Part shown: positions 33,376 through 52,400 of the stretch, in pieces
Layout: each line of letters begins with the position of its first letter
Position numbering within the stretch: the stretch's first letter is position 1
Source: an uncultured Actinomycetes bacterium
Lineage (GTDB): Bacteria > Actinomycetota > Thermoleophilia > Gaiellales > Gaiellaceae
Reading direction: 5' to 3'
DNA length: 64,000 nucleotides
NCBI GenBank assembly: GCA_963803325.1
Contig: CAWDLU010000002.1
Span: 154,982-218,981, forward strand
Made by a program: the position numbers and the translations under genes
Notes under the pieces: model-generated
Databases searched by the model: none
Told to the model about the DNA's origin: nothing
The model's input: only the letters and a program-made list of their open reading frames with translations

Positions 33376-36357
33376 GTGGCTGACGTCTTCATCTCGTATT
33401 CGCGTCAGGACGGTGAGTTCGTCCGCGGGTTGCACGAGTTCCTGCAGGGGGCGGGCCGCGATGTGTGGGTCGATTGGGAGGACATTCCGGCGGCGTCGGC
33501 GTGGGCGCAGGACATCGACGACAGCATCGACGCGGCAGAGAGCGTCGTCTTCGTCGTCTCGACGCACTCGCTCGCCTCCGAGTACTGCACGGCCGAGTTT
33601 CGCCATGCTCAGGAGCGGGGCAAGCGGATCGTGCCGATCGCCTGTGACGCTGCCGATCCGGAGGCTGCCCAGCCCGGTCTGCGTCAGCTGAACTGGATCT
33701 GGTGCCGGGTAGGCGACGATCGGGACGCCGCCTTTGCGAAGCTGGCGGGCGCGCTCGACACCGATCTGGAGTGGGCGCGGACGCACACCCGGCTGCTCGT
33801 GCGGGCGGTCGACTGGGAGGCTCGCGGCGACAGCAGCCTGCTTCTGCGCGGGCGGGATCTGAAGCAGGCGGAGGAGGTGCTGGCGGCGAACGCGGCCAAG
33901 GAGCCGAAGCCGACCGAGCTTCAACAGCGCTACGTGCACGCGAGCAGGAGTGGCGCGTCGAGGCGCCAGCGGATCCTGCTCGGCGGCGTGCTGCTCGCCC
34001 TGGCCGTCTCGATCGGTCTCGGTGTGGCGGCGCTGCTTCAGCGGAACACGGCGAATCAGCGGGCGCGGATCGCGCGCTCGCAGGCGCTTGCCGCCCAGGC
34101 TGTGGGGGCGCTCTCGTCCGCGCCCGCGGCGGCACTTGCAGACGCGGTCAAGGCGGTCGAGACGAGCCGGACCGACGAGGCGGAGGTTGCGCTCCGCCGC
34201 GCGATCCTGGCGAACCCGGTCGAGTACGTGATCCCGGCCGGACCTGACGACCGGCGGCAGGTCGCATCGGCCGGCGCGCGCGTCGACACGAGAGCGACAC
34301 TCGCCTTCAGCGCAGACGGACAGCTGCTGGTCGGACTGACGCCGGCGGGCTCGCTTCAGGTCTGGCGCGGCGCGGACGGACGGCCCGCCGGGCAGGCGAT
34401 CTCGGCAACGACGGCGGTGGCGCTCGCGCCCGGCAAGCTGCTCTCCGCGGACGGCCGCTCGATGCGGCTCGCCCGGCCGGATGGAGCCGTGGTGCGCACT
34501 CGGGCGGTCCCTGCCGGACAGCGGGTGGTCGGGGTCGGGTTCGTGGGTCGCTCTCCGAGCGCGGTCCTGGCAGGCCGGGGAGCGGTCGCGATCGTCGACG
34601 TCGTCAGCGGCCGCGAGGTGAGGCTGCACGGGCGAGCCGTTTACGCCGGGCAGGCCGTGTTCAGCGCCGGCGGCAAACGGGTGGTGACCGTTGCCGGCGG
34701 CGAGCAGGGCACCGTGCGGGTGTGGGAGACCCACACGGGGCGTCAGCTCGCGGCGCTGCGCGCGTCCTTCCCCGAGTCGGCCGCGATCAGCCCCGACGGC
34801 CGGTTCTTCGCGGCGGTCGCACCGGACGGGGCTGAGCTCTGGTCGGTCGACCGCGGCGTCCGCCTCGCGAGGCTCGGCCCCGCTGCCCGCGTCATCTTCA
34901 GCCCCGACGGCCGCCTCGTGGTTGCGGTCGGCGAGAACGGCGGCGCCGGCGTCTGGCGATCGAACGGCGGTCGTCTCGTCGCCGCTCTGCCCGGTTTCGG
35001 CAGCCTCCATGCCGGCGCCCTCGGCAGCTTCCGCACGCCCTTCGCTCCCGGTGCCGCGTTCAGTCCGGACGGGCGGCTGCTCGCGCTCGCCGCGTCGGAC
35101 GCGATCGTGCGGGTCTGGGAGCTCGCGACGCGCAAGCAGGTCGGGGCGGTGGCGATGGGCTGGGCGAACACACTGGCGTTTGGGCCGAACGGTGGCCGGC
35201 TTGCCGCGATGACCTGGGACGGTCACGTCGTCGTTGCGCGCGCACCCGCGAGCCTCGCGCTCAGAACGGCGTTCCACCCGAGCAGCTGCGTCGCGCAGTT
35301 CGACCCCGTCCTCAGCCCGGACGGCAGACGCGTTCTCGCGCCTGTCGCCGGGGGCGCCGGCGTCTGGGATGTCGACGGCAAGCGCCTCCAGCTCCTGCCG
35401 ACGCCGGCCCGCCCAGCCGGTCCCGCCGACGCAGCCGCAGTGAGCGCGGCCGCCTTCAGCGGCGACGGAACGACGGCGGTGGTCAGCGCCAACTCCGGCG
35501 GCTGCCACCAGTCGCAGGATCAGCGGTTCTGGACCGCGGTCTGGCGTGTCGGCGGCCACTCCCAGCTTCGCCGGTTTCCGCAGGCGCTCGACATCGCTCT
35601 CGATCCGCACGGTTCGCTCATCGCCGCCGGCGGGAAGGCTTGGCGGACGGCGACCGGCGCGCCGGTGCGCTCGCTCGACGGAATCGTCGGCCTGAGTCCG
35701 GACGGGCGCCTCGCCCTGGTGCGCCGAAACTGGATTGCCACGATCGTGCAGGTCGGCTCGGGAGCGGCTGTAGCGAAGCTTCGCGGGTTCGGAGGCTTCA
35801 CGCTCTCCGACGTGTCGGCGACCTTCAGCCCGGACGGTCGCCGCCTGGTCACGTTGCGGGGAGGGGACGTGCTGCGTCTCTGGGACGCTGCGAGCGGTGA
35901 GCCGCTCGGACGCCTCGGTCGGGCCGGCGAGATCGCCGACGGCTACTCGTTCAGCAAGGACGGCCGACTCGTGCGAGTGATCTTCGAGGACGAACGAGCG
36001 GCGACGTTCAGCGCCGCGGACGGCTCGCCCGTCTCGTCGCTGGCCGGGAGGTTCGCCGCGATCTCGCCCGACGGTACCCTCGCGACGGCCGCGCGAGACG
36101 ACGGCAGCGTCGTGGTCGCCGACCTGGCGACGGAGCTGAGCGTCGCCGTCCAGACCGACACCGCCGAATCGCTCGTCAGCGCCTCGTTCGGACCGACGCC
36201 CGGGCTGCTCGTCGCCGCCGACGCGACCGGCGACGTCCACTTGCTGCGGTGCGCGATCTGCGGGTCGGAAGCCGAGCTGCTGACGCGCGCCCGGGAGCAA
36301 CTCGCACTGGTGTCGCGTTTCCATCCGCGGCGGCCGCCGGCGAGCGGCGTTGCCTGA
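33376..36357 (+). CDS. TIR domain - hydrophobic helix - WD40 repeat protein (993 aa)
   Basis: GTG 33376: 'VADVFISYSRQDGEF...SEYCTAEFRHA' (TIR_2-like, Glu retained). Linker 'LEWARTHTRLLVRAVDWEARGDSSLLLRGRDLKQAEEVL'. Hydrophobic helix 'ILLGGVLLALAVSIGLGVAALL' at about 33973-34038. Then divergent WD40-like blades ('VRVWETHTGRQL', 'IVRVWELATRKQ' and others). C-terminal 'HLLRCAICGSEAELL'. Confidence 0.85.
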   Translation: MADVFISYSRQDGEFVRGLHEFLQGAGRDVWVDWEDIPAASAWAQDIDDSIDAAESVVFVVSTHSLASEYCTAEFRHAQERGKRIVPIACDAADPEAAQPGLRQLNWIWCRVGDDRDAAFAKLAGALDTDLEWARTHTRLLVRAVDWEARGDSSLLLRGRDLKQAEEVLAANAAKEPKPTELQQRYVHASRSGASRRQRILLGGVLLALAVSIGLGVAALLQRNTANQRARIARSQALAAQAVGALSSAPAAALADAVKAVETSRTDEAEVALRRAILANPVEYVIPAGPDDRRQVASAGARVDTRATLAFSADGQLLVGLTPAGSLQVWRGADGRPAGQAISATTAVALAPGKLLSADGRSMRLARPDGAVVRTRAVPAGQRVVGVGFVGRSPSAVLAGRGAVAIVDVVSGREVRLHGRAVYAGQAVFSAGGKRVVTVAGGEQGTVRVWETHTGRQLAALRASFPESAAISPDGRFFAAVAPDGAELWSVDRGVRLARLGPAARVIFSPDGRLVVAVGENGGAGVWRSNGGRLVAALPGFGSLHAGALGSFRTPFAPGAAFSPDGRLLALAASDAIVRVWELATRKQVGAVAMGWANTLAFGPNGGRLAAMTWDGHVVVARAPASLALRTAFHPSSCVAQFDPVLSPDGRRVLAPVAGGAGVWDVDGKRLQLLPTPARPAGPADAAAVSAAAFSGDGTTAVVSANSGGCHQSQDQRFWTAVWRVGGHSQLRRFPQALDIALDPHGSLIAAGGKAWRTATGAPVRSLDGIVGLSPDGRLALVRRNWIATIVQVGSGAAVAKLRGFGGFTLSDVSATFSPDGRRLVTLRGGDVLRLWDAASGEPLGRLGRAGEIADGYSFSKDGRLVRVIFEDERAATFSAADGSPVSSLAGRFAAISPDGTLATAARDDGSVVVADLATELSVAVQTDTAESLVSASFGPTPGLLVAADATGDVHLLRCAICGSEAELLTRAREQLALVSRFHPRRPPASGVA

Positions 36358-36378: not shown

Positions 36379-37122
36379 TCAAGAACGTTTGAACACGCGA
36401 GCGAGCCGTTGCAGCATCGAGTCGGCAGGGATCAAGAGGCCGCGGCCGGCCATGCCCGTCATCCGGTCGAGCGTGGCCAGAAACTCCGCGGCAAGCTTCG
36501 GCTCGTCGCGCAGCGCCCAGAGCGCATGCGCGTTCGTCCATGCAGCATCACGGGCTCGTTCGACGTTCCACATCGCGGCGATGTCGTCGATCCGGTGAAA
36601 GCGGTGTACGGCTCGATCGAGTAATCCCAGCCAACCGGTGAGGTACAGCCGCTTGATCCTCGGCTCGACGTCCGCCAGCAGGGCATTCACCTGCTTGAAG
36701 TCGGCTTGTGCGGGTGAGCCCTCGCGCAGGTCGAGCCCGAGCTCATGGCAGGTCTTCACCAGCGCCACCGGTAGGTCGCGGTTGATGTGTGCGTTCATCC
36801 CGGCCAGGGCGAACTGGAGCGGCGTCAGCCCCCGCCCCGACCGCTGCGCGAACAGCGGCACCCACGCGGACGGCGCGCTCGCCGGATCGCGCTCGTACGC
36901 GTCGAGCGCCGAGAAGAACAGGCCGGCGAAGCAGACATCGAGCCGCTCCAGAAACCGCGGGTCGGCGAAGCCCGCCTGTGCGAGGGTGGCGTTGACGCCC
37001 TCGGTCACCTCCCGGTACAGATGCGCGAAGCAGGCGACGCCGTCCGAGCGAGGCGCCGCGGCCTCGATCCCGCGCAGCCGCTCGATCACCGCCGGGACGG
37101 TCGCTGGATTGGCCACGCTCAC
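36379..37122 (-). CDS. Hypothetical protein, DUF5995-like
   Basis: 247 aa, all-helical. 'CFAHLYREVTEGV', 'FLERLDVCFAGLFFSA' and 'LAGMNAHINRDLPVAL' match my recollection of DUF5995; not verified. Last gene of the minus-strand string. Confidence 0.5.
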   Translation of the reverse strand: MSVANPATVPAVIERLRGIEAAAPRSDGVACFAHLYREVTEGVNATLAQAGFADPRFLERLDVCFAGLFFSALDAYERDPASAPSAWVPLFAQRSGRGLTPLQFALAGMNAHINRDLPVALVKTCHELGLDLREGSPAQADFKQVNALLADVEPRIKRLYLTGWLGLLDRAVHRFHRIDDIAAMWNVERARDAAWTNAHALWALRDEPKLAAEFLATLDRMTGMAGRGLLIPADSMLQRLARVFKRS

Positions 37123-37162: not shown

Positions 37163-40087
37163 TCAGCGTTCGTGCAGGAACCGGAGCCGCTCGACGGCGG
37201 TGAGCCTGCGGCCGACGGAAACGTGCGCTTGGACGTCGGCGAGCAGTTGCTCCAGGTTCCCGCAGGCCTGGCAGGTGTGCAGGAGGACCGTGCCGTCGCG
37301 GCTGCCGGTGATCAGATCTCGGGGGTCGCTCCCGAACGCGACGCTCGTCACCCAGCCGTGGCGATCCTCGAACCGCGCCGTCAGGCGTCCCGTGGCCGCC
37401 TCCCACACCAGCGCGATGCCGTCGCGCCCTCCCGTCGCGATCCAGCGTCCGTCGGGGCTGAACGCAGCGACGTTCGTCTCGCCGGACTCGCCTCGGAGCT
37501 CCAGCACGGCGCGTCCGCTGGCGATCTCCCAGAGGCGCGTCGGATCTCCGCGGCTCGCCGTCAGCAGGAACCGCCCGTCGGGGCTGAAGGCGACGCTGAC
37601 GATCTCGGCGGTCAGGTCGCCCAACGTGAAGATCGGCTTCCCGGTGGCCGCGTCGCGCACAGCCGACGGGCCGGCGATCGTGGCCGGGGGGGCGGTGGTC
37701 ACGACCAGGCGCCCGTCGGGGCTGAACGCGGCGTCGGCCCGCAGGATCCCCGGCTGCCCCGGAAGGGTCGTCAGCAGCCGGCCGCTCGCGACGTTCCAGA
37801 TCTTGGTCGAGTCGAACCGGGCGACGGACGCGAGCCGGGTCCCGTCCGGGCTGAAGACCACCCGATCCACCTCCCGCCGGTGCCCGCGCAGCTCGTGCAG
37901 CAGCGTGCCGGTCGTCGCGTCCCAGATGCGCACCACGTGATCCGTTCCGCCGCCGGCCGCAAGCCGGCCGTCCGGGCTGAAGGCAACGGACAGCGCCTTG
38001 CCGCCGGTCGGGTTCCGGAGGCTGACCACCGGACCGCCGGCATCGACTGCCGAGATCATCGCGGCGACGCCCGCACGTCCGATCGCCCCGGTCAGGACGC
38101 GCCCGCCGTCCGGGCTGAGCGCGGCGTCCAGGACGGGCAGGCGCTTGGGGTCGCCGATCGTGCGGACGCGGGTTCGGGCGTTCGTGTCCCAGAGGCGTGC
38201 TGTCCAATCGGCGCCCCTGCTCAACGCGAGACGGTCGTCAGCGGCAAAGCCGACCACGCTCACCTCGCGGCCGTGGGATCCAAGCCGGGCCGGTTGCCCG
38301 CTGTCCAGGGACCAGACCCGTGCGGTGCCGTCGTCGCTCGAGGTGAGCACGAGGCGTCCGTCGGAGCTGAAGATCGGGACGCCGACGCCGTTGGTGTGTC
38401 CGCGCAGCTCGGCGAGCAGACGCCCCGTGCGCGTGTCCCACACCCGCGCGACCGGGTCCTCGCCGGTCGTGGCCACCTCGGCGCCGTCTGGGCTGAACAC
38501 CGCCCTGGTCACGGGATCCGGATGACCTCTGAGGGTGACGAGCAGACGGCCGCTCTGCGAGTCCCAGATGCGTGCGGTCCGGTCGGCCGAGGCCCCGACC
38601 ACGCGCGCACCCTCCGGGTCGAACGCCGCGTAGTTCACGCTCGCTCCGGCGCCGCGGAGCACCGCGACGCTCGCGCCGGTGACCGCCGACCAGACGCGAG
38701 CCGTGCCGTCGTCTCCGGCCGTGACCACCCGGGTGCCGTCCGGACTGAAGAGGGCGCGGTTCACCCCGCCCCGGTGGCCTCGCAGGACGTACAGCCGAGC
38801 ACCCGTACGCGCGTCCCACACGGTGGCTCCGTCGGGCCCGGCGGCGACCACGCGAGTGCCGCCGTGATCGAACGCTGCATTGAACACGGACCCGTTTCCC
38901 CGAAGCGCGGTCGCCGGCCGTCCGCCGGTGAGGTTCCAGACCCAGACCACGCCGTCGGCGCTCACGGCGAGCGCCCGGGTGCCGTCGTCGCTGAACGAGG
39001 CGCCGTAGAGCGCCGCCGTTGGGCCCTGAAGGACGGCGCGCGGGTCGCCGGTGTGGGCGTCCCAGATCCGAACGGTGCCGTCGGAGCCCGCGGTCAGCAG
39101 CCGCTCGCCCCGGCGGTCGAACTTGACCGCGTCGACCGTTCCCCGGTGCCCGCGCAGCTCGGCGACGAGCCTGCCGGTCCGCACGCTCCAGAGACGCGCG
39201 GTGCCTTCGGCCGCGGCGGTCACGGCCCGGTCGCCCTGCGGCGCCAGATCGGCGGCAAACAGAGGCGCGGGCAGTCCGTCGAAGGTAGCCCGTGAGTGGG
39301 AGCTGAGGATCGCCTGGCGCAGCGCGTCCTCGGCCTCCGCGGTCGGCTTCGTCTCCGCGGCGCGAGCCGCCAGCAGCACGCTCAGCTCGGGATCGAGCGG
39401 GAGCTGCTGGTTGGCCAGGGCGGCGATCTCACGCGAGCGGGCGGTGTGCTCGCGGTCGATCGCCTGGCTGCGCGTGACGAGCGAGTAGGCGGTGAGCGCG
39501 AGCGAGACCGCGAGCGCGAACCCGACCGCGCCGAGGACGATTTGCTGCCTGCGGCTGGCGGCCCGGCGGCTCGCCGCGACGAAGTCCCGCTGGAGATCCG
39601 TCGGCGACTCCCCGTGCGGCCCGGGGTCGTTGAGCCATCTCTCCTCGGCCTCCTTCAGCCGGCCGCCGCGCAGCAGCGTGCTCTTGTCCCTGCCGCTTGC
39701 AACCCAGTCGTGGGCCTGGATGGTCAGCTCGTTGTGCTTGTCGCGCCACCACAGATCGGCGTTGACCGCCTCGACGACCTGCTCGATGCCGAGGTCGACC
39801 GGATCGGCCTCCCCGAGCTGGATCCGCTGGATCTTCGCGAGCGCATCCGGCACCCGGTCGTCAGGCACGTCGATGCGCACGATCGGGACGAGCGGCTTGC
39901 CGAGCTCGACTGCGACGCCGAGCTCGCGCCGGCAGTACTCGGACTCGAGTGACCCCGGGCTGATCACGAAGGCGAACGCGCGCGCCGCCCGGATGCCGGT
40001 GTCGATGCGCTCTTGCCAGTCGGCGCCCGGCTCGATGTCGTCGAGGTCGAGCCAGACGTTCTTTCCCCGCGCCTCGAGTGCGGTCAC
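37163..40087 (-). CDS. TIR - hydrophobic helix - WD40 repeat protein; annotated from the first canonical start, but the TIR N-terminus continues upstream without a start codon
   Basis: 974 aa from GTG 40087. TIR remainder 'VWLDLDDIEPGADW...SEYCRRELGVA', linker 'DLWWRDKHNELTIQAHDWVASGRDKSTLLRGGRLKEAEERWL', helix 'IVLGAVGFALAVSLALTAYSLV', about 15 WD40 blades ('LRGHRGTVDAVKFDRRGERLLTAGSDGTVRIWDAHTG' and similar), and C-terminal 'LLHTCQACGNLEQLL'. The in-frame upstream sequence encodes 'ADAFISYSRRDTREFVQGQL'. Confidence 0.75.
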   Translation of the reverse strand: MTALEARGKNVWLDLDDIEPGADWQERIDTGIRAARAFAFVISPGSLESEYCRRELGVAVELGKPLVPIVRIDVPDDRVPDALAKIQRIQLGEADPVDLGIEQVVEAVNADLWWRDKHNELTIQAHDWVASGRDKSTLLRGGRLKEAEERWLNDPGPHGESPTDLQRDFVAASRRAASRRQQIVLGAVGFALAVSLALTAYSLVTRSQAIDREHTARSREIAALANQQLPLDPELSVLLAARAAETKPTAEAEDALRQAILSSHSRATFDGLPAPLFAADLAPQGDRAVTAAAEGTARLWSVRTGRLVAELRGHRGTVDAVKFDRRGERLLTAGSDGTVRIWDAHTGDPRAVLQGPTAALYGASFSDDGTRALAVSADGVVWVWNLTGGRPATALRGNGSVFNAAFDHGGTRVVAAGPDGATVWDARTGARLYVLRGHRGGVNRALFSPDGTRVVTAGDDGTARVWSAVTGASVAVLRGAGASVNYAAFDPEGARVVGASADRTARIWDSQSGRLLVTLRGHPDPVTRAVFSPDGAEVATTGEDPVARVWDTRTGRLLAELRGHTNGVGVPIFSSDGRLVLTSSDDGTARVWSLDSGQPARLGSHGREVSVVGFAADDRLALSRGADWTARLWDTNARTRVRTIGDPKRLPVLDAALSPDGGRVLTGAIGRAGVAAMISAVDAGGPVVSLRNPTGGKALSVAFSPDGRLAAGGGTDHVVRIWDATTGTLLHELRGHRREVDRVVFSPDGTRLASVARFDSTKIWNVASGRLLTTLPGQPGILRADAAFSPDGRLVVTTAPPATIAGPSAVRDAATGKPIFTLGDLTAEIVSVAFSPDGRFLLTASRGDPTRLWEIASGRAVLELRGESGETNVAAFSPDGRWIATGGRDGIALVWEAATGRLTARFEDRHGWVTSVAFGSDPRDLITGSRDGTVLLHTCQACGNLEQLLADVQAHVSVGRRLTAVERLRFLHER

Positions 40088-41924: not shown

Positions 41925-42014
41925 CGAACAGGTGGCGGAGATGGGCAACGAACGCCCCCAGGTGAGCTGACAGCAACAACGACGCTCTCACGCCGCGTGG
42001 GGGGTGTCAAGCCC

Positions 42015-45016: not shown

Positions 45017-46135
45017 CTAGGCGGGGAAGCCGGCGAAGTGCTCGCGTTTCACCTTCGAGGCGACCGCGCGGCCGACCTGCTGGAGCTCGGCCACGTGCTC
45101 GATCGAGTCGAGCCGCTGCACCTCGGCCGGGTTGATGTCGGGCACACCGAGGAGCGTCAGGCCTTCCTTCGACAGCTCGCCGTTGTAGCGGGCGTAGGTG
45201 AAGAGCTTCGGCTCGACGGGCCCTCGCACAGTGGCGAGGTCGCCGACCTCGCGGTCGAGCGGGTCGCCTGCGAGGCAGCGGCCGAAGACCCGGCAGAGCA
45301 GGTCCTGCTCGTTCAGCGCGGCGCCCATCAGGGCGGCGGGGATCGAGCCGGCGTTGTAGAGCAGGTTCATCTCGTCCGGCCGGAGGTTCACGTTCGCGCG
45401 CGGGTTCGTTCCCGTGCCGATCGAGACCAGCAGCATCTGCTCCTCGCCCGTCGCCCAGCCGAGGCCGTACGGCTCCACCGTCGCCATCAGGAAGAGCTGG
45501 AACGCCGGGTTATTGTACATCGTCACGCCGCCGTCGACGAAGACGAACGACTGCCCGCCGCCGATGTCGATCACCTCCGGCGGGAAAAAGGTGGGCGCCG
45601 CCGTGCTCGCGCGCACGAGCTGCCAGAGCGGGAGGTCGAGATTCCGGAACGGGCGGTCGGGCAGGTTGTACCGCGCCGCCGGGTTGTTCGAGAGCGGCCA
45701 GGGCGAGTCGGTCGTCGCGTTGCGCACGACGACCAGCAGCAGCGTTCTGAGCCGGTCGCTGCCGAGTGTCGTGTCCTCGCCGAGCTCTTTCCGCAGACGC
45801 CTGGCGAGGTGGTCGTCCTCGTACTTGTAACGGAAGCGCGCCAGCACCCTTGCCTTGTCGAACATGTCGGTGGCGTTCTCGACGTAGAAGTCGCGGATCC
45901 GCTCGGCGGACATCCCGACAGAGAGGCAGGTCGCGATCACCGCGCCGGTGCTCGTGCCGGCGATGTAGTCGAAGTAGTCGGCGAGGACGAACTCCCTGCC
46001 GCCGCCGCAGTCTTCGCGCAGAAGCCGCTCGATCTCGGCCAGCACCTCGATCGTGATCAGCCCGCGGATGCCGCCGCCGTCGAGTGCAAGCAGCTTGCGC
46101 GGGCCGGCCTTCGCGAGCTTGTCGGCCACCGTCAT
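45017..46135 (-). CDS. Patatin-like phospholipase
   Basis: From ATG 46135: oxyanion 'LALDGGGIRGL', nucleophile elbow 'IAGTSTGA' (GxSxG), and the catalytic Asp context 'FVDGGVTMYNNP'. Stop lies 12 nt before the TIR-WD40 start. Confidence 0.85.
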   Translation of the reverse strand: MTVADKLAKAGPRKLLALDGGGIRGLITIEVLAEIERLLREDCGGGREFVLADYFDYIAGTSTGAVIATCLSVGMSAERIRDFYVENATDMFDKARVLARFRYKYEDDHLARRLRKELGEDTTLGSDRLRTLLLVVVRNATTDSPWPLSNNPAARYNLPDRPFRNLDLPLWQLVRASTAAPTFFPPEVIDIGGGQSFVFVDGGVTMYNNPAFQLFLMATVEPYGLGWATGEEQMLLVSIGTGTNPRANVNLRPDEMNLLYNAGSIPAALMGAALNEQDLLCRVFGRCLAGDPLDREVGDLATVRGPVEPKLFTYARYNGELSKEGLTLLGVPDINPAEVQRLDSIEHVAELQQVGRAVASKVKREHFAGFPA

Positions 46136-46137
46136 CG

Positions 46138-48168
46138 TCAGACGTCCATCCTCGTCGGGTTGACGATCGCAAAGCGGCTGCTCATCTGCTCGGCTCTCCG
46201 GGCGAAGTCGGAGGTCCCGCCGGGCCCGTCGCCCGTCGGCTTCTCGTCCCAGACCATGATTGTCGAGATCCGGCCGTTGGGCGCCTCCACCCGAGCCGTG
46301 TCGAGGATCCAGAGATTGGTGCGCGCGAAGACGTCCAGCCCGGCGGGAGGGTCGCCGAGCCGGTCCGGCTGCACGGCGACCTCGGCACGCTCGAGCACCT
46401 GGTGGAACCGCTCCTCCCACCGGCCGGCATCGCCGCGAAGCCGCACCGACCTCGCGAGGAACTCCGGCTCGGGGAGGGCGAGCAGGATCCGCACATCCGC
46501 ATCCAGCTCGAGTGCGAGCTCGGCGAACAGCAGGTCGGCGCCGCGGGCCCCGCCGCTGATCGCGAGCGTTCCTGGCCCGACCGACGCAGCCTCGAGCTCG
46601 TGCCGCATCCGCTTCCGAACCGCATCCTCCTTCTCCGGCGGAAACCGGGGTTCCGGGCGGTCCGGCGCGTCGATCATGTGGCCGCTGCAGACGATCACGT
46701 TGCCGTAGCGCTTCGCCGGCGGCGCGACGCGGTCCCGGATCGGCTCGAGGGCGGCCCGAACCTTCGCTACAGCTTCGCCCCGAAAGCCGAGCTCCTCGTA
46801 CAGGCTCAGCTGGGAGAGCATCGACTCGAGCTGAAACAGGGTTGCGCCGGGCGCGGCCAGTGCCTCCAGGTACAGCTCGACCGCGCGATCCGAGTTGCCG
46901 GCAAGCAGATCGAGCTCGCCGAGCGTCGACGCGGGCCAGACGACCGCGTCCTCCGCACCCGTGTCGTATGCGCGCCGCCGGGCCTCGGCCGCCGCCACGC
47001 GGACGCACGCGGCCAGGTCGTCGCTGTTCTCGGTGGCGGGCCCTTCCGGGTCGGCGGCCGCTCCCACGTGCTCGAGGAGCTGCGTCAGCCCGACGACGTT
47101 GATCCCGTTGTAGTACGACTCGAGGTCTCGCCGGTGCGCGCGGCGGTAGCTGCGGATCGCCAGTCGTGCCTGTGCCGCCGACTCGCGGGCGATCGCCCGC
47201 CGCTGATCGGGGTCGCCGACACCACTCCAGAGCGCGCGCCAGGCGTCCTTGTAGATGCGGCCGAGCGCGCCGTGAGACTCCGGATCGTCGGGTCGCCCCT
47301 CGAGCACGGTTGCAATCCGCTGCTCGGCCTCGGCCGCCCGGCCGAGCCGACCGAGGACGAGGGCGAGGATGCGCATCGCGCCGAGATTGCCGGGATCGAA
47401 GTCGAGCAGTTCGTCGAGGACGCTCTCCGCGACGTCGAACCGCTGGAGCTCGACCAGCGCACGCGCCGCCTCGGTCAGAAGCTTGCCCCGGTGGAACCGC
47501 GTCGGCGCGTCACGCGCGAGCGTCAGGACGTCGCCGGCGTGCCCGTTCCGGCGCGCGATGCGCACCCGTGCCTGCCAGTCGTCCAGAACGCCCTGGAAGT
47601 ACTTTGCGGTCGCCGTCTCGATCCCGCTCCAGTCCGCAGGCCGAAGCCCCCGCAGCGTCAGGTAGACAGGGCTGCCGATCGTCCGGCCGTCGGTGGCCAG
47701 CGCTTGCCGGAACACCACCCCGAGGCGCTTCGCCTCGGCGGCGACCCGTTCCGCCCACGCGTCGCCGCGTCTGGCGGCGGCCAGGAAGAGCGATCCGTCG
47801 TAGCTGAACGTGCGATCGGGGGCGACGTCGAACGGGCGGGGAATCCAGCCCGCGGTGATCATGAACACGCCGCGCTCGGCGACGCCGTGGCGGATGCCGA
47901 GCTCGTAGAAGACGTTCGGGTTCAGGATCGAGATGTCCGCGACCACGAGGTCGGCCGTGACCAGCTCGAAGTACATGTCGGTCCGGATGTCGCCGGCGCC
48001 CGGCTCCTCGTCCGCGCGGAACGGGTCGCAGCCCGCCTCGCGGAGCGCCGGTGCGATCACGAGCCCGTACAGCTCGTTGAAGTCGACGGTCACGGTTCGG
48101 CCTCGCTGCGTCGGTGACGGCACCTTGCGCTTCCCGAACGGCATCGCGACAAACGCGCGCGGCAGCAT
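46138..48168 (-). CDS. Three-part protein: N-terminal flavodoxin-fold DUF4071/nucleoside-deoxyribosyltransferase/TIR-like domain, TPR-like helical middle, C-terminal SLOG-like Rossmann domain
   Basis: From ATG 48168: 'MLPRAFVAMPFGKRKVP...VDFNELYGLVIAPALREAG...ADISILNPNVFYELGIRHG'. The middle is a helical repeat region ('ARALVELQRFDVAESVLDELLDFDPGNLGAMRILALVLGRLGRAAEAEQ'). C-terminal 'NVIVCSGHMIDAPDRPEPRFP...LAISGGARGADLLFAELALELDADVRILLALP'. Stop TGA lies 2 nt before the patatin ATG. Domain names are from memory of the families. The tracked ORF starts at 48264. Confidence 0.65.
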   Translation of the reverse strand: MLPRAFVAMPFGKRKVPSPTQRGRTVTVDFNELYGLVIAPALREAGCDPFRADEEPGAGDIRTDMYFELVTADLVVADISILNPNVFYELGIRHGVAERGVFMITAGWIPRPFDVAPDRTFSYDGSLFLAAARRGDAWAERVAAEAKRLGVVFRQALATDGRTIGSPVYLTLRGLRPADWSGIETATAKYFQGVLDDWQARVRIARRNGHAGDVLTLARDAPTRFHRGKLLTEAARALVELQRFDVAESVLDELLDFDPGNLGAMRILALVLGRLGRAAEAEQRIATVLEGRPDDPESHGALGRIYKDAWRALWSGVGDPDQRRAIARESAAQARLAIRSYRRAHRRDLESYYNGINVVGLTQLLEHVGAAADPEGPATENSDDLAACVRVAAAEARRRAYDTGAEDAVVWPASTLGELDLLAGNSDRAVELYLEALAAPGATLFQLESMLSQLSLYEELGFRGEAVAKVRAALEPIRDRVAPPAKRYGNVIVCSGHMIDAPDRPEPRFPPEKEDAVRKRMRHELEAASVGPGTLAISGGARGADLLFAELALELDADVRILLALPEPEFLARSVRLRGDAGRWEERFHQVLERAEVAVQPDRLGDPPAGLDVFARTNLWILDTARVEAPNGRISTIMVWDEKPTGDGPGGTSDFARRAEQMSSRFAIVNPTRMDV

Positions 48169-48266
48169 CCGCTCGTCCTGTGAGCTCACAGGCGGCCGCC
48201 TCTGGCAGTCATCGCAATCGAGAGCGTACGCTCCCCGCTGTGGACGCGAGCGGAAGGTGATCACGC

Positions 48267-51200
48267 GTGGCCGGTGTCTTCATCAGCTACCGGCGTAGCG
48301 ACACGGCCCCGTACGCAGCGCGTCTGAAAGTACGCCTCGACTCCGAGTTCGGCGACGGGTACGTCTTCATGGACGTCGACTCGCTCAGACCCGGGGAGCC
48401 GTTTCCAAAGGTGATCGAGCAGACGATCGCGTCCACCGAGGCCGTGCTCGCCCTGATCGGGCCCGACTGGCTGACCGTGACCGGCGCCGACGGGCGGCGC
48501 CGGCTCGACAACCCCGGCGACTTCGTCCGGATCGAGCTGGCGACCGCCTTCCGGCAGGGGCGGGTCGTGATCCCGGTGCTGCTCGAGAACGCCTCGATGC
48601 CGCACGCGGTCGAGCTCCCCGAGCCGCTCGCTGCCCTCGCGGAGCGGCACGCGATCGAGCTCGGGGACAAGGGCTGGGACGGTGACGTTGCCCGCCTCGT
48701 GCAGCGCCTCGAGGAGGTTGTCGACACGATTCCGCCCCGCCCGTACCCGGGCATGGTCGCGTTCGGGCGAGCCGATGCCGCTCGGTTCTTCGGGCGGGAG
48801 AAGGAGGTCGGCGAGATCGAGGACCGGCTCGCCTCGCAGCGGTTCCTGTGCCTCGTCGGCCCATCCGGGTGCGGCAAGTCGTCGCTGATCGCGGCGGGCG
48901 TGCTTGCCGACCTCGAGCGCACGCAGGCGGTTCGTTGGGCTGTGCGCACCATGCGGCCGGGGGGAGCGCCGATGCGTTCGCTCGGCGAGGCGCTCGGTGC
49001 CGAGCTCGATCACACGGCCACGCCCGAGGCGGTCGGGCGGGCGGCCGGACAGGCGATCGCCTCCCAGCAAGAGGCGGCGCGGCTGCTGCTCGTGGTCGAC
49101 CAGCTCGAGGAGCTGTTCGCGCAGGCCGGCTCGGACGAGCAGGCGCGGTTCGTCGCCGCGCTCGAGGCGATCCACGAGGTCGACGAGGCCTCGATCGTGC
49201 TGGCGATCCGAGCCGACTTCTACGGCGAGTTGATGGAGAGCGCGCTCTGGCCGCTCGTCGAGGGAGGCAAGGTCGACGTGCCCCCACTCACCGGCGACGC
49301 TCTCGCCGAGGCGATCGTCGAGCCGGCGAAGGCCTGCCACGTGACGATCGAGCCCGACCTGCTCGAGCGACTGCTGGCGGACGCAGGCAACGAGCCCGGA
49401 GCGCTGCCGCTCCTCCAGGAGGCGCTCGTACGCCTGTGGGGGTCGATGCACCTGCACCGGATCTCGCTCGCCGCCTACGAGCAAATCGGCGAGGGCCGCG
49501 GCGGCCTGTCCGCCGCCGTCGCCGAAACGGCCGACGCGGCGCTGGCGGCGCTCTCGCCCAAGCAAGTGTCGATCGCCAAGCGCGTGCTGCTCCGGCTGGT
49601 TCAGTTCGGGCAGGGCCGTCCGGACACGCGCCGCCGGCTCGCCTTCGAGGACCTGCGCAGCGAGGGCGACGACGACCGCGCGCTCGAGGAGGTGCTCGAC
49701 AGCCTCGCCCGCTCCCGCCTCGTCACGCTCGCCGGCTCGGCCACCCCGGGCGCGGGCGGTGAACTGGTCGACCTCGCCCACGAGGCGCTGATCGCCGGGT
49801 GGCCGACGATGCGCGAATGGCTGGCCGAGCGACGCGACGCCGAGCAGGCTCGCCGGCGGCTCGAGGGTCACGTTGCGACCTGGGAGGAGCACGACCGCAC
49901 CGCCGCCTTCCTCGACGAGGTCGAGCTGCGGGAGGCCCAGGGCTGGCTCGCCGGCCCCGACGCGCGAGAGCTCGGGGTCCCGCGCGGCCTGCCCGAGCTC
50001 GTCGCGGTGAGCGCCGCCAAGCTGCGCCGCCGCCGCCGTCTCCGCCGCGCTGCGATCGCCGGTCTCGCCGGCCTGCTGATCGCGGCGATCGTGCTCGCGG
50101 GCGTCTTCCTGCGGGCACGCAACGACGCCATTCACCGGGCCAACGTCGCGCTCTCGCGCGAGCGGGCGGCCGGTGCGCTCGCGGCTCTCTCCGTCGACCC
50201 GCACCACAGCCTGCGGCTCGCGCTCCAGGCTGTCGACGCGCTCAGGGCGGACCGCTCCGCCACGGCGGCGGACCGCCAGGAGGCCGAGGCGGCCCTGCGG
50301 GACGCGGTCCGCGCGTCACGGGTTCGCGCGCTGCTGAAAGGGCACACGGCCGAGGTCGTGTCGGCGCACTTCGACGCGAGCGGCCGGCGCGTCGTCACCG
50401 CCGGCTGGGACGGGACAGCGCGCGTATGGGATGCGCGCACCGGTAGAGCCGAGGCGGTGATGCGTACCGGCGCGGTTCAACTCGAGACAGCCGCCTTCGA
50501 TCCCGACGGGACGCGTGTGATCACGGCCCAAGACGACGGCACCGCCCGCGTGTGGAACGCCGGGACCGGAGCCCCTCTGGCGGTGCTTCGCCACGAACCG
50601 CGCTCGAAGGTGCTCGATGCCGGCTTCAGCGCTGACGGCCGCTTCGTCGTCACCGCCGGCTCCGACGGGACCGCGCGCGTCTGGGACGCGAGCACCTGGC
50701 GGCCGGAGACGACGCTCGGCCGTGTCGGCGGGCCGGAGATCCGGCGCGCGGTCTTCAGCCGCGACGGCTCGCTGGTGGCGACCGCCGGACGCGACGGATT
50801 CGCCGTCGTCTGGAGCACGTCCACCGGCAGGTCGCTTGCCCGGCTCCGGCACGGGGCCGCGGTCGGATCGGTGCGCTTCGGCCCTGACCGGTCGATCGTG
50901 ACCGCGAGCGACGACGGCACCGCGCGGGTCTGGTGTCCGTTCGCGCGCGAAGCGAAGCCGGTCGTGCTCCGCGGGCACCAGGGCGTGGTCACCGACGCCG
51001 AGTTCAGCCCCGACGGCACGCGCGTCGTCACGGCGAGTCTCGACGGCACGGCGCGGTTGTGGAGCCCGCGGACGGGCGAGGAGCTCACCGTCCCGCTCAC
51101 ACACGGCGGCGCGGTCCGCACCGCGACGTTCAGCCCCGACGGGACGCGTGTCGTCACGGCGAGCGCCGACCAGACCGCCCGAATCTGGGACGCCCGCACG

Positions 51201-52400
51201 GGCAAGGAGCACGCCGCGCTTCGGGGTCACGACAACTACGTCGGGAGCGCCGAGTTCAGCCCCGACGGGACACGGGTCCTCACGTCGAGCTTCGACGACA
51301 CCGCTCGTGTCTGGGACGCGGCCGAGGAGGAGCCCCTGGTCACGGTGGGAAGCAGCAGGTTCCCGGTTGCTCGCGCCGCCCTCAGCCCGGACGGCAAGCG
51401 ATTCGTGACGACGCCGTCGCTCGGTGATCCGCGCGTCCTCGACGCCGGGACCGGGGCGGCGGTCTCTACCCTGGCCGTTGACGGCGCTCGGGTCGTCAGC
51501 GCAGAGTTCAGCGCCGACGGCCGCGACGTGGTCACCGCGGAGGCGGGCTCCGTGCGGATCTGGGCCGCGGCCACCGGCAGACTCGTGGGCTCGAAGGAGC
51601 TGAAGGGTGACCCCGTGGTCGCCGTCCCGAGCCCCGATGCCGCCGCCATCGTCTCGGTCAGCGTGGACGACTCCGCCGATCGGTCCGTGACCACGGTCGC
51701 GCTCTGGAATCGCACACGCCCGGAGCCGGCCGCGACCTGGCACCTCGACGGGCGTGGGCAGGGAGCGGACTTCGACGCGAACGGCCGCCGGCTCGTCGTC
51801 TGGTCGGAGGACGGCGGCGTCTCGGTGTGGGACATCCCCTCACGCCGCAGGCTCGCCGCCTTCTCGATCCCCACCGCGCTGCGGTCCGCTTCGCTCAGCC
51901 CCGACGGCTCGCGCGTGGTCACCGCCGGGAACGACGGCATTGCTCGGATCTGGGATGTCGCGAGCGGAGGGGAGCTGAAGAGCTTCAGCCATGCTCTCGC
52001 GGTCGTCGCCGCATCGTTCAGCGCCGACGGCAGCCGGCTGCTGACCGCCGGCCTCGACCAGACCGCGAAGATCTGGGACGCGCAAACGGGTGACGAGCTC
52101 GTCTCGTTGAAGGGTCACGAGTCCGAGCTTGCCGGTGCGACCTTCAGCGCCGGCGACCGATGGGTGGTGACCGCCGGTCTCGACGAGACGGCGCGCACCT
52201 GGGACGCGCTGACGGGTCAGGAGCTCGCGGTCTTTCAACATCCGGCCGCCGTCACCGAAGCGACATTCGACCGGGACGGCCGCCGCGTGCTCACGCTGGC
52301 GGCCGACTTCCGCGCACGCGTGTTCCGCTGCGATACGTGCCTTTCGCTCGACGGGCTCGTTCGCCTTGCCCGCAGCCGGCTCGTCGCCGGTCTCCAGTAG
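48267..52400 (+). CDS. TIR - nSTAND-type P-loop NTPase - hydrophobic helix - WD40 repeat protein (1377 aa)
   Basis: GTG 48267: 'AGVFISYRRSDT...DFVRIELATA' (TIR). 'PYPGMVAFGRADAARFFGREKEVGEIEDRL...FLCLVGPSGCGKSSLIAAG' (Walker A at about 48858-48884) and 'LLLVVDQLEELF' (Walker B) match the nSTAND1-type pattern. Helix 'AAIAGLAGLLIAAIVLAGVFL' at about 50050-50112. About 16 WD40 blades. C-terminal 'RVFRCDTCLSLDGLVRLA'. Confidence 0.85.
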   Translation: MAGVFISYRRSDTAPYAARLKVRLDSEFGDGYVFMDVDSLRPGEPFPKVIEQTIASTEAVLALIGPDWLTVTGADGRRRLDNPGDFVRIELATAFRQGRVVIPVLLENASMPHAVELPEPLAALAERHAIELGDKGWDGDVARLVQRLEEVVDTIPPRPYPGMVAFGRADAARFFGREKEVGEIEDRLASQRFLCLVGPSGCGKSSLIAAGVLADLERTQAVRWAVRTMRPGGAPMRSLGEALGAELDHTATPEAVGRAAGQAIASQQEAARLLLVVDQLEELFAQAGSDEQARFVAALEAIHEVDEASIVLAIRADFYGELMESALWPLVEGGKVDVPPLTGDALAEAIVEPAKACHVTIEPDLLERLLADAGNEPGALPLLQEALVRLWGSMHLHRISLAAYEQIGEGRGGLSAAVAETADAALAALSPKQVSIAKRVLLRLVQFGQGRPDTRRRLAFEDLRSEGDDDRALEEVLDSLARSRLVTLAGSATPGAGGELVDLAHEALIAGWPTMREWLAERRDAEQARRRLEGHVATWEEHDRTAAFLDEVELREAQGWLAGPDARELGVPRGLPELVAVSAAKLRRRRRLRRAAIAGLAGLLIAAIVLAGVFLRARNDAIHRANVALSRERAAGALAALSVDPHHSLRLALQAVDALRADRSATAADRQEAEAALRDAVRASRVRALLKGHTAEVVSAHFDASGRRVVTAGWDGTARVWDARTGRAEAVMRTGAVQLETAAFDPDGTRVITAQDDGTARVWNAGTGAPLAVLRHEPRSKVLDAGFSADGRFVVTAGSDGTARVWDASTWRPETTLGRVGGPEIRRAVFSRDGSLVATAGRDGFAVVWSTSTGRSLARLRHGAAVGSVRFGPDRSIVTASDDGTARVWCPFAREAKPVVLRGHQGVVTDAEFSPDGTRVVTASLDGTARLWSPRTGEELTVPLTHGGAVRTATFSPDGTRVVTASADQTARIWDARTGKEHAALRGHDNYVGSAEFSPDGTRVLTSSFDDTARVWDAAEEEPLVTVGSSRFPVARAALSPDGKRFVTTPSLGDPRVLDAGTGAAVSTLAVDGARVVSAEFSADGRDVVTAEAGSVRIWAAATGRLVGSKELKGDPVVAVPSPDAAAIVSVSVDDSADRSVTTVALWNRTRPEPAATWHLDGRGQGADFDANGRRLVVWSEDGGVSVWDIPSRRRLAAFSIPTALRSASLSPDGSRVVTAGNDGIARIWDVASGGELKSFSHALAVVAASFSADGSRLLTAGLDQTAKIWDAQTGDELVSLKGHESELAGATFSAGDRWVVTAGLDETARTWDALTGQELAVFQHPAAVTEATFDRDGRRVLTLAADFRARVFRCDTCLSLDGLVRLARSRLVAGLQ

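Follow-up and report, generated by a model that had tools for sequence, protein, structure and literature searches.

Among the described systems closest to the proteins analysed here are the nSTAND1 conflict-system NTPases (PF20703), for which the passages searched in Kaur, Iyer, Burroughs and Aravind (eLife 2021; PMC8195603) give an effector-NTPase-repeats architecture and mention neither a hydrophobic helix nor an exported sensor. The window, the whole 64,000-nucleotide stretch of DNA from an uncultured soil Actinomycetes bacterium that was analysed, carries four neighbouring TIR genes, here termed A to D. Gene D encodes a full member of the nSTAND1 group, with a TIR effector, the nSTAND1 domain and WD40 repeats. 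The NTPase is present in nSTAND1 conflict systems, whereas A, B and C lack it, and these three are therefore derivatives of nSTAND1 NTPases and not members.

A second likeness, by layout, is to the cyanobacterial orthocaspase-(AAA_16)-TM-WD40 proteins (Asplund-Samuelsson 2012, PMC3501461; J Exp Bot 2020 review, PMC7475262), which have a cytoplasmic effector, an optional NTPase, one predicted membrane helix and C-terminal WD40 repeats. For these caspase-headed proteins the review proposes a WD40 part that lies outside the cell and controls the effector in the cytoplasm, and an extracellular WD40 has thus been put forward before. The effector of the orthocaspase proteins is a caspase-like protease whereas that of A-D is a TIR, and the orthocaspase proposal was based only on a TM prediction, with none of the charge, cysteine and cap evidence used here for A-D.

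The first-pass annotation of this DNA had likened the four proteins to animal Toll-like receptors. The compartments would indeed be alike, with a repeat sensor outside, one membrane helix and the TIR inside, and ligand-driven association, which activates Toll-like receptors, may be the mode for A-D also. However, chain order, ectodomain and TIR type differ. Toll-like receptors are type I proteins with an N-terminal LRR ectodomain and a C-terminal TIR, whereas A-D, predicted to be type II, reverse the chain order, with an N-terminal TIR, WD40 propellers (PF00400) and no signal peptide. In addition, the Toll-like receptor TIR is an adaptor scaffold, whereas the TIRs of A-D have the catalytic Glu of NADase TIRs. 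Since the TIR is the only homologous part, the arrangement would be convergent and the likeness is an analogy only.

The predicted N-in/C-out single pass and the propeller sensor also recall PknD-type and kinase-TM-WD40 proteins. M. tuberculosis PknD is a single-pass receptor Ser/Thr kinase with an extracellular beta-propeller of the NHL and not the WD40 type, and kinase-headed relatives (P0174 and others) carry the same helix/stalk/WD40 cassette as the TIR proteins, with a kinase and not a TIR as output. Thoeris ThsB, AbTIR and TIR-SAVED share the catalytic Glu, and our TIRs gave weak but significant matches to the models for ThsB and SAVED-TIR and to the structures of AbTIR and PdTIR; none of these proteins is known to be membrane-spanning or WD40-fused. 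PADLOC returned only TIR and phospholipase effector matches for ten gene products, with no match to a ThsA or cyclase model among them, and so no known system appears to be reconstituted by these ten.

Architecture of the four TIR-WD40 genes

The four genes (A, 33376-36357, + strand, 993 aa; B, annotated at 37163-40087, - strand, 974 aa; C, 42056-45004, - strand, 982 aa; D, 48267-52400, + strand, 1377 aa) have a GC3 of ∼0.90, and a public protein collection holds entries of exactly equal length for A, B and D. All four share a layout of TIR, Arg cluster, uncharged 21-24 residue helix, helical flanks, WD40 repeats and a C-x-x-C followed by a C-terminal helix. The description of the genes as four paralogs with one layout therefore held for the layout, but not for their equivalence. 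D has the complete nSTAND1 form; A and B derive from this type but lack the NTPase; C is chimeric, with a different TIR set on the same helix/stalk/WD40 cassette. The first 300 residues of A, B and C gave no match to any NTPase family, and what A and B keep is the linker/helix/stalk module, which stands behind the NTPase in nSTAND1 proteins. The Trp/Arg-rich linker, previously ascribed to three of the four proteins, was recovered by alignment in A and B, with a looser match in D and none in C.

The TIR_2 model (PF13676, curated cutoff 28 bits) matched all four proteins above threshold, with scores of 94.8 bits for A, 90.2 for B (in an extended frame only), 33.6 for C and 51 for D. The catalytic Glu residues of A (Glu74) and B (Glu55) aligned with the Glu of the 'NYEL'/'YEL' motif in AbTIR, Glu55 of B was invariant in 33 aligned homologues, A and C among them, and gene D reads 'VRIEL' at this motif. 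The NADase-type catalytic Glu ('W/Y..E[LFI]' after strand C) is thus kept in these TIRs, and NAD cleavage is predicted.

In gene A, the TIR domain (residues 4-123; 33385-33744, + strand; PF13676 E 7e-27) aligns to PdTIR 3h16 and AbTIR 7uwg/8g83, with Glu74 opposite the Glu of the 'W..(Y)EL' motif. The following Trp/Arg-rich helical linker, predicted to be cytoplasmic (33763-33972, + strand; alignments A1 and A2), has no Pfam model and ends in the Arg cluster SRSGASRRQR. The predicted transmembrane helix ILLGGVLLALAVSIGLGVAALL (residues 200-221, 22 aa; 33973-34038, + strand; KD19 2.49, Hessa sum -1.30) has no charged residue and conforms to the family consensus of 22 residues, small-residue face included. 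A 'QRN..A...A.S' helical stalk and a degenerate WD40 array (34039-36249, + strand, boundaries approximate) lead to the C-terminal cap 'CAICGSEAELLTRAREQL...' (36250-36354, + strand), with its C-x-x-C at 36250-36261. Four cysteines, an even number, lie past the helix (638, 710, 959 and 962).

In gene B, the TIR-coding sequence (39803-40138, - strand; PF13676 E 1.8e-25, extended frame only) begins before the annotated gene. The first start codon is GTG 40087, and the first TIR strand (ADAFISYSRRD) is encoded ahead of it, with no ATG, GTG or TTG between the in-frame stop at 40246-40244 and 40087. The position of this strand upstream of the first usable start codon puts the intact TIR in doubt, and it may not be made. 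Protein B was modelled with AlphaFold2 (pLDDT 89.4). The helical linker, predicted to be cytoplasmic (39542-39799, - strand; alignment A2), comprises helices 97-109, 112-130 and 142-152 together with the first part of helix 164-228, and ends in SRRAASRRQQ. The predicted transmembrane helix IVLGAVGFALAVSLALTAYSLV (residues 183-204; 39476-39541, - strand; KD19 2.13, Hessa sum 0.02) forms the middle of the continuous 65-residue helix 164-228, between two folded parts. The post-helix stalk and ∼14 WD40 blades follow (37274-39475, - strand; PF00400 E 1.5e-93), with stalk helices to 228 and then at 233-246 and 250-262, and WD40 strands over 265-938. Top Foldseek matches to this model were the Nostoc WRAP propeller (2ymu) and Apaf-1 (3sfz). 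The full-length cap 'CQACGNLEQLLADVQAHVSVGRRLTAVERLRFLHER' (37166-37273, - strand; C-x-x-C at 37262-37273) has no Pfam model and is modelled as helices 945-950, 952-955 and 964-971. In alignment A4 neither C939 nor C942 varies, and these two cysteines make up an even count past the helix.

Gene C begins with a divergent TIR domain of a different subtype (residues 27-120; 44645-44926, - strand; PF13676 E 6e-08, ThsB_TIR 8.8e-05), followed by a different linker without the W/R motif, and its pre-helix region aligns poorly. The predicted transmembrane helix LAWSAGALLAALAIGAATLAVLTV (residues 210-233; 44306-44377, - strand; KD19 2.23, Hessa sum -0.68) precedes a stalk and a WD40 array (42122-44305, - strand; PF00400 E 1.5e-140, 14 stretches), which is a tandem repeat at the DNA level (126-bp period, 15.6 copies, 71% matches, 42124-44095). 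The short cap 'CDLCVPIGPLRALARERLAAE' (42059-42121, - strand) holds the C-x-x-C at 42110-42121, and the only two cysteines of the whole protein are those of this motif.

In gene D, the TIR domain (residues 4-144; 48276-48698, + strand; PF13676 E 2.6e-13) is followed by an nSTAND1 NTPase (residues 159-545; 48741-49901, + strand; Walker A GPSGCGKS), which matches PF20703 over profile positions 1-377 of 379 (E 1e-105 to 3e-105, 353 bits) and is an addition to the layout first given for this protein. A linker ending in KLRRRRRLRR (49902-50048, + strand) leads to the predicted transmembrane helix AAIAGLAGLLIAAIVLAGVFL (residues 595-615; 50049-50111, + strand; KD19 2.71, Hessa sum -2.72), then to the stalk and WD40 array (50112-52328, + strand, boundaries approximate) and the short cap 'CDTCLSLDGLVRLARSRLVAGLQ' (52329-52397, + strand; C-x-x-C at 52329-52340). 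Three cysteines lie past the helix, an odd number that counts against the export pattern described below.

Conservation of the hydrophobic helix

Each protein has one strongly hydrophobic segment, as first described, with a peak of 2.13-2.71 in a 19-residue Kyte-Doolittle window and a runner-up of no more than 1.48. The Arg cluster ahead of it was likewise found in all four (RRQR in A, RRQQ in B, HRRILR in C and RRRRRLRR in D). The A-D segments lack charged residues, have a low hydrophobic moment and give Hessa sums of -2.7 to 0.0 kcal/mol; each is predicted to be long and apolar enough to insert as the single span of a type II protein. In 2000 shuffles per protein, the observed peak was reached by 71 for A, 231 for B, 115 for C and 16 for D (0.8-11.6%), rates at which any one protein, in its Ala/Leu/Val-rich composition, is only modestly unusual. 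Comparable peaks in the other window products checked were mostly N-terminal, as in signal peptides, or in membrane-protein families such as SLATT.

A profile of the linker/helix module matched 10,894 cluster representatives. The hydrophobic peak was at least 1.95 (median 2.65) in all of the 150 best homologues of these 10,894, and its recurrence at the same position there and in the four proteins shows that it is not due to chance. The uncharged stretch was exactly 22 residues long in 93 of 136 homologues. Conservation along the helix had a periodicity that peaked at 100 degrees per residue, indicating one conserved face, with small residues conserved at positions 4/5, 9, 13, 17 and 20 and Leu16 present in 91 of 93. 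The helix/stalk/WD40 cassette also occurs behind nSTAND1 domains and behind kinase domains of the Hanks type. Among the WD40 relatives, P0217 has a Sec-type signal peptide at its start, and others (e.g. P0235) share the stalk, WD40 and cap but have no helix.

Orientation of the helix and alternative readings

The first-pass annotation had cautioned that there are basic residues behind the helix too. This is so, and in A, B and C taken singly the charge before and after it differs little or not at all (A, +4/+4; B, +3/+2; C, +1/+1). Across homologues, the N-side of the helix has four conserved Arg and the C-side one, two residues past its end. Net charge was +4.1 before versus +1.8 after the helix within 15 residues, with the N-side higher in 81 of 91 homologues, and +3.5 versus -0.3 within 30 residues, a positive-inside bias at the family level.

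Even numbers of cysteines are favoured in exported but not in cytoplasmic proteins of aerobic Actinobacteria (Daniels et al. 2010, PMC2823432). The cysteine count past the helix was even in 86 of 92 homologues (P = 3e-19), versus 25 of 92 ahead of it, and a second set, fetched via the WD40 region, gave even-to-odd ratios of 79:23 after and 33:69 before the helix. The helix-less relatives, with 4-14 cysteines each, split into 7 even and 8 odd. Extra cysteines come as close pairs at sites that differ by lineage (CC, CxC, Cx4C, Cx13C, Cx16C, Cx20-24C); some pairs are 42-48 residues apart, for which blade duplication is possible instead of disulfides.

The C-x-x-C motif (959/962 in A, 939/942 in B, 962/965 in C, 1355/1358 in D) lies directly past the last beta-strand and ahead of a helix. 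It is kept in 83 of 93 full-length homologues, so that the refuting condition named in the first-pass annotation, a motif that homologues do not conserve, does not apply. A survey for its co-occurrence with the hydrophobic helix found it in 46 of 102 helix-bearing but in 0 of 15 helix-less relatives (P = 3.8e-4); the helix-less P0235 retains the cap helix and has no cysteines there. Disulfides formed inside a C-x-x-C are under strain and in many cases redox-active, and the role of structural staple given to the motif here is therefore assumed.

We consider it probable, on computational and statistical evidence, that A-D belong to one large family of membrane proteins that cross the membrane once, N-in/C-out (type II), a reading built on the observed domain content, helix and cap conservation, charge bias and cysteine statistics. 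The placement of the TIR inside and the WD40 outside, as first suggested, is supported at the family level by four independent lines that go beyond the first-pass annotation: the length and face of the helix, the N-side charge bias, the parity and pairing of post-helix cysteines, and the limitation of C-x-x-C to helix-bearing relatives.

The most serious alternative, which we judge unlikely, is that the helix does not span the membrane at rest and the protein is cytoplasmic, as other STAND/TIR sensors are. The helix would then be buried as a core for oligomerisation, or would be a latent element, released on activation, that inserts into the membrane or forms pores. Almost all canonical WD40 arrays and STAND-type sensors are cytoplasmic, as are the nearest solved folds, WRAP and Apaf-1, all of which counts against export. 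The basic residues that flank the helix at either end in A, B and C, the relatives such as P0235 that do without it, and the conserved small-residue face, which is also typical of the glycine zippers of homo-oligomeric, channel-forming helices, would fit a cytoplasmic protein too. However, this leaves unexplained why it is only past the helix that cysteines are scarce, even in number and paired, why C-x-x-C is limited to helix-bearing proteins, and why the charge bias falls on the N-side in 81 of 91. Nor does it explain the cassette behind kinase domains, which recalls receptor Ser/Thr kinases such as PknD, and 22 consecutive uncharged residues between Arg clusters are a classical membrane-span signature.

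The opposite topology, with the TIR (and in D the NTPase) outside and the WD40 in the cytoplasm, is very improbable. The basic residues after the helix are its sole support, whereas the proteins lack an N-terminal signal sequence, TIR requires NAD+ and nSTAND1 requires ATP, the charge bias runs the other way, and the cysteine pattern is that of a cytoplasmic protein ahead of the helix and of an exported one past it. It is hardly credible that the helix and the C-x-x-C mean nothing and arise by accident from a high-GC, Ala/Leu/Val/Gly-rich composition: although the observed hydrophobicity can be had by shuffling one protein at a time, this reading is refuted by the homologue survey, in which the helix keeps its architectural position, fixed length and conserved face and the C-x-x-C is retained, with both cysteines invariant in alignment A4.

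A candidate receptor family and its neighbourhood

If A-D are N-in/C-out membrane proteins, the cytoplasmic part would consist of the TIR with its catalytic Glu, followed in D by the nSTAND1 ATPase, and a short helical linker ending in the conserved Arg cluster. The 22-residue helix, with its small-residue 'glycine-zipper-like' face, would cross the membrane, and outside would lie the helical stalk, ∼14 WD40 blades forming two propellers, and a helical cap stapled by a C-x-x-C disulfide. An extracytoplasmic ligand on the propellers may alter how the membrane helices pack or oligomerise, which would bring the TIR domains together, in D with nucleotide-driven assembly. The resulting NAD+ cleavage might cause growth arrest or death, or provide a nucleotide signal to effectors encoded nearby (SLATT, patatin, TPR-S protein).

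More tentatively, these proteins could represent a receptor family of Actinomycetota, Chloroflexota and Cyanobacteria in which a disulfide-stapled WD40 region outside the cell switches a cytoplasmic TIR NADase via a glycine-zipper-like helix, as a convergent counterpart of Toll-like receptors. Gene D would then be a 'transmembrane NLR', joining the outside-sensing logic of Toll-like receptors to the nucleotide-driven assembly of NLRs, and A-C, which lack the NTPase, may connect different sensors to one common hub. The bacterial TIR and STAND/NLR-type immune sensors characterised to date are all known to detect their triggers inside the cell. If the WD40 is outside, bacteria would also have TIR receptors for extracellular or envelope cues (phage attachment, wall damage, neighbouring cells), an arrangement thought typical of animal Toll-like receptors. 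To our knowledge, the family, very large at thousands of cluster representatives, is completely unstudied. Cysteine parity offers a cheap and directly testable handle on its topology, and the hydrophobic helix deserves attention in effector-NTPase-WD40 'conflict systems' that have been read as cytoplasmic sensors.

Secreted TolB-like and InlB-repeat-like neighbours had suggested an envelope-sensing theme, but 80 related loci do not bear it out: the TolB-like protein as query matched only scattered beta-propeller ORFs, in 8 loci, and the InlB-like protein had a match in 1. No partner gene was conserved across the 80 loci. In the window, the patatin scored 117 bits against the CBASS lipase model (cutoff 200). 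A SLATT/DUF4231 two-helix membrane protein (32723-33355, + strand; PF14015 E 5.6e-29; NF033634 96.7 bits, cutoff 41) ends 21 bp upstream of gene A. SLATT was directly upstream in only 2 of the 80 loci (L001 and L009) and nearby in 2 more, and it is possibly a local partner of gene A, not a family-wide one.

Domain layout of the TIR-WD40 genes

The four TIR-WD40 genes A (33376-36357, +), B (37163-40087, -), C (42056-45004, -) and D (48267-52400, +) lie in a window of ∼70% G+C, and their codon-position G+C (GC3 ∼0.90 in all four ORFs) indicates that they are real genes. Exact-length entries for A, B and D are present in public protein collections, all of them nameless. The closest relatives of the window are metagenome-assembled genomes from soil that carry the labels Actinomycetes and Thermoleophilia; among them, loci L001 and L002 are 91% and 80% identical, respectively, to A over its N-terminal part. 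Pfam searches placed canonical WD40 repeats across the C-terminal ∼700 residues of all four proteins and TIR_2 at the N-terminus of A, C and D; in B, TIR_2 was matched only with the reading frame extended upstream of the first start codon. A full-length nSTAND1 NTPase (PF20703, E 3e-105) follows the TIR in D only – i.e. D is the complete TIR-nSTAND1 form, and A and B are versions without the NTPase. The TIR of C is divergent (33.6 bits), and its region before the hydrophobic helix differs, giving no alignment with the Trp/Arg-rich linker. The common layout that the first-pass annotation ascribed to four paralogs was therefore borne out, although the four proteins differ in these respects.

An AlphaFold2 model of B, built with 33 aligned homologues (mean pLDDT 89.4, pTM 0.74), predicted a TIR fold without its first strand, three linker helices, an uninterrupted helix (residues 164-228) containing the hydrophobic segment (183-204), two further helices, ∼56 strands forming fourteen blades, and three short cap helices. 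A fold search of the PDB returned generic double-propeller matches only, and the best solved-structure matches were a Nostoc WRAP propeller (2ymu, 28% identity) and Apaf-1.

Two of the genes have further peculiarities. In B, TIR strand 1 (ADAFISYSRRD) is encoded in frame 5′ of the first ATG/GTG/TTG (the GTG at 40087), within 40087-40246 (-), and no start codon occurs between the in-frame stop at 40246-40244 and 40087. The L001 orthologue of B (93% identical) has an in-frame GTG overlapping the stop of the upstream gene (cTAGTGc; L001 12748-12841), a site occupied in the window by the end of the TolB-like gene. B may have a truncated TIR, an unusual start, or be decaying. In C, the WD40 region (42124-44095) is a DNA-level tandem array with a 126-bp period, 15.6 copies and 71% matches, a repeat not shown by A, B or D, and GC skew jumps over the same stretch (0.159 in 42001-44000). 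Together, the array and the skew indicate a recent amplification or homogenisation of blades, as is described for cyanobacterial WRAP-type propellers.

Proposed membrane span and orientation of the hydrophobic helix

We propose that the hydrophobic helix spans the membrane, with the TIR inside and the WD40 array outside (N-in/C-out). The first-pass annotation noted one strongly hydrophobic segment in each of A-D, and this was upheld: a single 19-residue window per protein reached a mean Kyte-Doolittle hydropathy of 2.13-2.71, compared with ≤1.48 for the runner-up, and the segment occupies the same place in the 150 best homologues. It has no charged residues, a low hydrophobic moment and a summed Hessa insertion free energy of -2.7 to 0.0 kcal/mol. 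Among the other window products checked, values of at least 2.0 were mostly N-terminal, signal-peptide-like peaks or membrane-family matches such as SLATT, and the remainder peaked at or below ∼1.8. Shuffled copies of the single proteins, which are rich in Ala, Leu, Val and Gly, equalled the observed peak in 0.8-11.6% of trials. The case for the helix therefore rests on its recurrence at one position rather than on single proteins. Four family-level tests addressed span and orientation: length and conservation, charge, cysteines, and co-occurrence.

Of 136 homologues, 93 have an uncharged stretch of exactly 22 residues, with Arg flanking one end and Gln-Arg the other. Conservation within it has helical periodicity (peak at 100 degrees), with small residues at positions 4/5, 9, 13, 17 and 20, Leu16 in 91/93 and Ala20 in 90/93. 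The predicted helix thus has small residues conserved along a single face, a pattern of membrane helices that pack together. Basic residues also follow the helix, and the first-pass caveat that these leave the orientation unsettled holds for A (+4/+4), B (+3/+2) and C (+1/+1) taken singly. Across the family, Arg is conserved at four positions before the helix and at one after it. Net charge over 15 residues is +4.1 before and +1.8 after the helix (higher on the N-side in 81/91 proteins, lower in 2), and over 30 residues it is +3.5 and -0.3. At this level, charge resolves the predicted orientation toward N-in. The opposite orientation would place the TIR, and in D also the ATPase, outside, with no signal sequence to export them.

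The part after the helix is cysteine-poor, and its cysteine count is even in 86 of 92 representatives, compared with 25 of 92 before the helix (binomial p 3e-19; Fisher p 1e-21). In an independent set retrieved through the WD40 region, even-to-odd counts were 79:23 after and 33:69 before the helix; among proteins lacking the C-x-x-C the ratio was 38:18, and helix-less relatives (4-14 cysteines each) gave 7:8. In aerobic Actinobacteria, an even-cysteine bias has been published as the hallmark of proteins that are exported and disulfide-bonded; cytoplasmic proteins do not show it (Daniels et al., PMC2823432). Cysteines beyond the C-x-x-C number 0 (38 proteins), 1 (5), 2 (28), 4 (9) or 6 (3) and form close pairs at sites that differ by lineage (CC, CxC, CxxC, Cx4-5C, Cx13C, Cx16C, Cx20-24C), in some homologues as a second pair inside the cap. 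A few pairs are 42-48 residues apart, for which blade duplication could be the source.

The C-terminal C-x-x-C and Leu-rich helix noted at first pass proved to be the start of a conserved element, a cap present in 83/93 full-length homologues (consensus C-x2-C-[G/R]-x4-L-L-x2-A-x2-R-V-T-R-x-L-T-x2-E-R-x2-Y-L-H). The cap is complete in B, divergent in A and short (C-x-x-C plus one helix) in C and D. Neither cysteine varies across the 33 aligned sequences, and in B and C the two are the sole cysteines after the helix. In the B model they lie between the last β-strand (933-938) and the first cap helix (945-950), and this modelled position at the N-terminal end of a helix allows an i/i+3 disulfide. 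A metal site was rejected: the alignment has no other conserved Cys/His, and one third of homologues have just these two cysteines after the helix. Because the cap profile gave only nine short fragments against a 5.8-billion-sequence set, co-occurrence was assessed in 117 relatives retrieved through the WD40 region irrespective of the helix. The C-x-x-C was found in 46 of 102 helix-bearing and 0 of 15 helix-less relatives (p 3.8e-4). P0235, an nSTAND1-WD40 protein lacking the hydrophobic helix, retains the helix of the cap (DLLVRARERVTRKLTPEERVKYL) but not the cysteines. Another WD40 relative (P0217) starts with a typical Sec signal peptide and, therefore, WD40 arrays of this type can be exported.

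Together, these four tests favour a real membrane span with the N-terminus inside, and we consider the predicted N-in/C-out topology likely. Of the TLR-like arrangement originally suggested, with WD40 in place of LRR, the TIR-inside/WD40-outside topology is thus supported by the family-level helix, charge, cysteine and cap data, and the link to TLRs is one of analogy.

A cassette joined to different enzymes

To place A-D in a wider family, a profile of the linker/helix/stalk module was searched exhaustively against 1.84 billion representatives, which returned 10,894 proteins at E ≤1e-3 and 3,725 at E ≤1e-10. The 150 best matches are mostly 900-1030 residues long with the module at ∼117-300, and the dominant form among them is the NTPase-less TIR-helix-WD40 protein, as in A and B. 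In all 150 the hydrophobic peak reaches 1.95 or more (median 2.65; median second peak 1.31). A word-index search with the linker/helix module of B gave five matches, all fragmentary. Full-length B retrieved >5,000 relatives. Among the best are Hanks-kinase-WD40 proteins and, from many phyla, nSTAND1-WD40 proteins, and in nearly all of these a single hydrophobic peak separates the catalytic part from the WD40 array. The module profile aligns along its entire length to nSTAND1 proteins, directly after the NTPase, and its helix-plus-stalk part matches a kinase-headed protein. Because it recurs in TIR, nSTAND1 and kinase proteins, we regard helix, stalk, WD40 array and cap as a cassette joined to different cytoplasmic-type enzymes. 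Related loci, retrieved with a single-protein query, came from Thermoleophilia (Solirubrobacterales, Gaiellaceae), Acidimicrobiia, many Anaerolineae and other Chloroflexota, and Cyanobacteria.

None of the linker, the post-helix stalk and the cap is covered by a Pfam model. A cyanobacterial TIR protein (P0242, 1474 aa) carries the Trp/Arg linker (profile positions 3-80) three times in tandem before the helix (149-229, 357-428 and 552-718), so the linker behaves like a unit that is independent and can be repeated. Beyond the cap, some homologues (P0131, P0208, P0212 and P0127) continue into extra domains or into tails rich in Pro, Ala, Ser and Val; an unassigned domain of ∼230 aa, which includes a cysteine pair of its own, is common to P0208 and P0212. 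Pfam matched only a VHL-beta-like domain in P0131 (E 1.5e-07), and nothing in these extra domains was diagnostic of location.

Glu55 of B is invariant in the 33-sequence alignment, and Glu74 of A aligns to AbTIR. This glutamate is catalytic in NAD-cleaving bacterial TIRs; the TIR domains retain it, and their matches to ThsB and SAVED-TIR models are weak. By analogy with receptor kinases, TLRs and TIR enzymes needing self-association, we infer that an outside ligand would alter the packing of the membrane helices, leading to TIR clustering and NAD+ cleavage. The family would thus be TLR-like in compartment logic, yet its members are not TLRs: homology is confined to the TIR, the domains run in reverse order along the chain, and the sensor has another fold.

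D belongs to the nSTAND1 clade that Kaur et al. (2021) defined, in a paper whose searched passages make no mention of the hydrophobic helix. The topology idea is not new in kind, since a 2020 orthocaspase review proposed, from TM prediction alone, an extracellular WD40 for cyanobacterial caspase-headed effector-(AAA_16)-TM-WD40 proteins (PMC7475262). That review covers caspase-headed relatives, and the literature searched contained no statement that TIR/nSTAND1-WD40 proteins span the membrane. What is new is the extension to a very large TIR-headed NTPase-less family, the conserved face of the predicted membrane helix, and the cysteine and cap evidence. The topology proposed for the TIR-WD40 family is directly testable.

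Gene neighbourhood

The ∼30 kb around the TIR genes, with SLATT, patatin, TPR-S, DUF3800 and type I restriction methylase genes, looks like a defence island. Upstream (28044-31978) is a sugar-nucleotide cluster (hexapeptide transferase, GFO/IDH/MocA oxidoreductase, UDP-sugar dehydrogenase, UDP-GlcNAc 2-epimerase), and downstream (55710-60841) are PG_binding_1, DUF3800, HTH_66-DUF433 and type I restriction HsdM methylase proteins; given these flanks, we place the TIR genes in a defence-island-like stretch. SLATT, TolB-like, patatin and TPR-S proteins were rejected as obligatory partners, having no conserved association across 80 related loci and occurring mostly in closely related ones. As no neighbour is kept, the TIR-WD40 proteins are probably self-contained.

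The first-pass annotation had also read an envelope-sensing theme from two secreted neighbours, a TolB-like PD40 propeller protein (40206-41948, -; signal-peptide-like N-terminal peak, KD 2.18 at residue 23) and a 434-aa protein (52486-53790, +; no Pfam match; signal-peptide-like N-terminal peak, KD 2.30 at residue 16). This theme was not sustained, as their adjacency to TIR-WD40 genes does not extend past the closest relatives.

A SLATT/DUF4231 two-helix membrane protein (32723-33355, +), a predicted nucleotide-responsive effector, ends 21 bp 5′ of gene A; the pairing recurs in L001 and L009 and is absent from most related loci. Between A and B, a DUF5995 protein (36379-37122, -; E 4e-65) has the same place in L001. 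At 45017-48264 (-), a patatin phospholipase overlaps the end of a 708-aa TPR-S 'sensor' domain protein. The patatin resembles a CBASS cGAMP-activated lipase at 117 bits, below the cutoff of 200; in the TPR-S protein, residues 90-159 give a weak TIR-like match, and the GGARGADLLFAE region at the C-terminus looks SLOG-like by eye. This pair is conserved in L005 and may be a separate nucleotide-signalling defence module.
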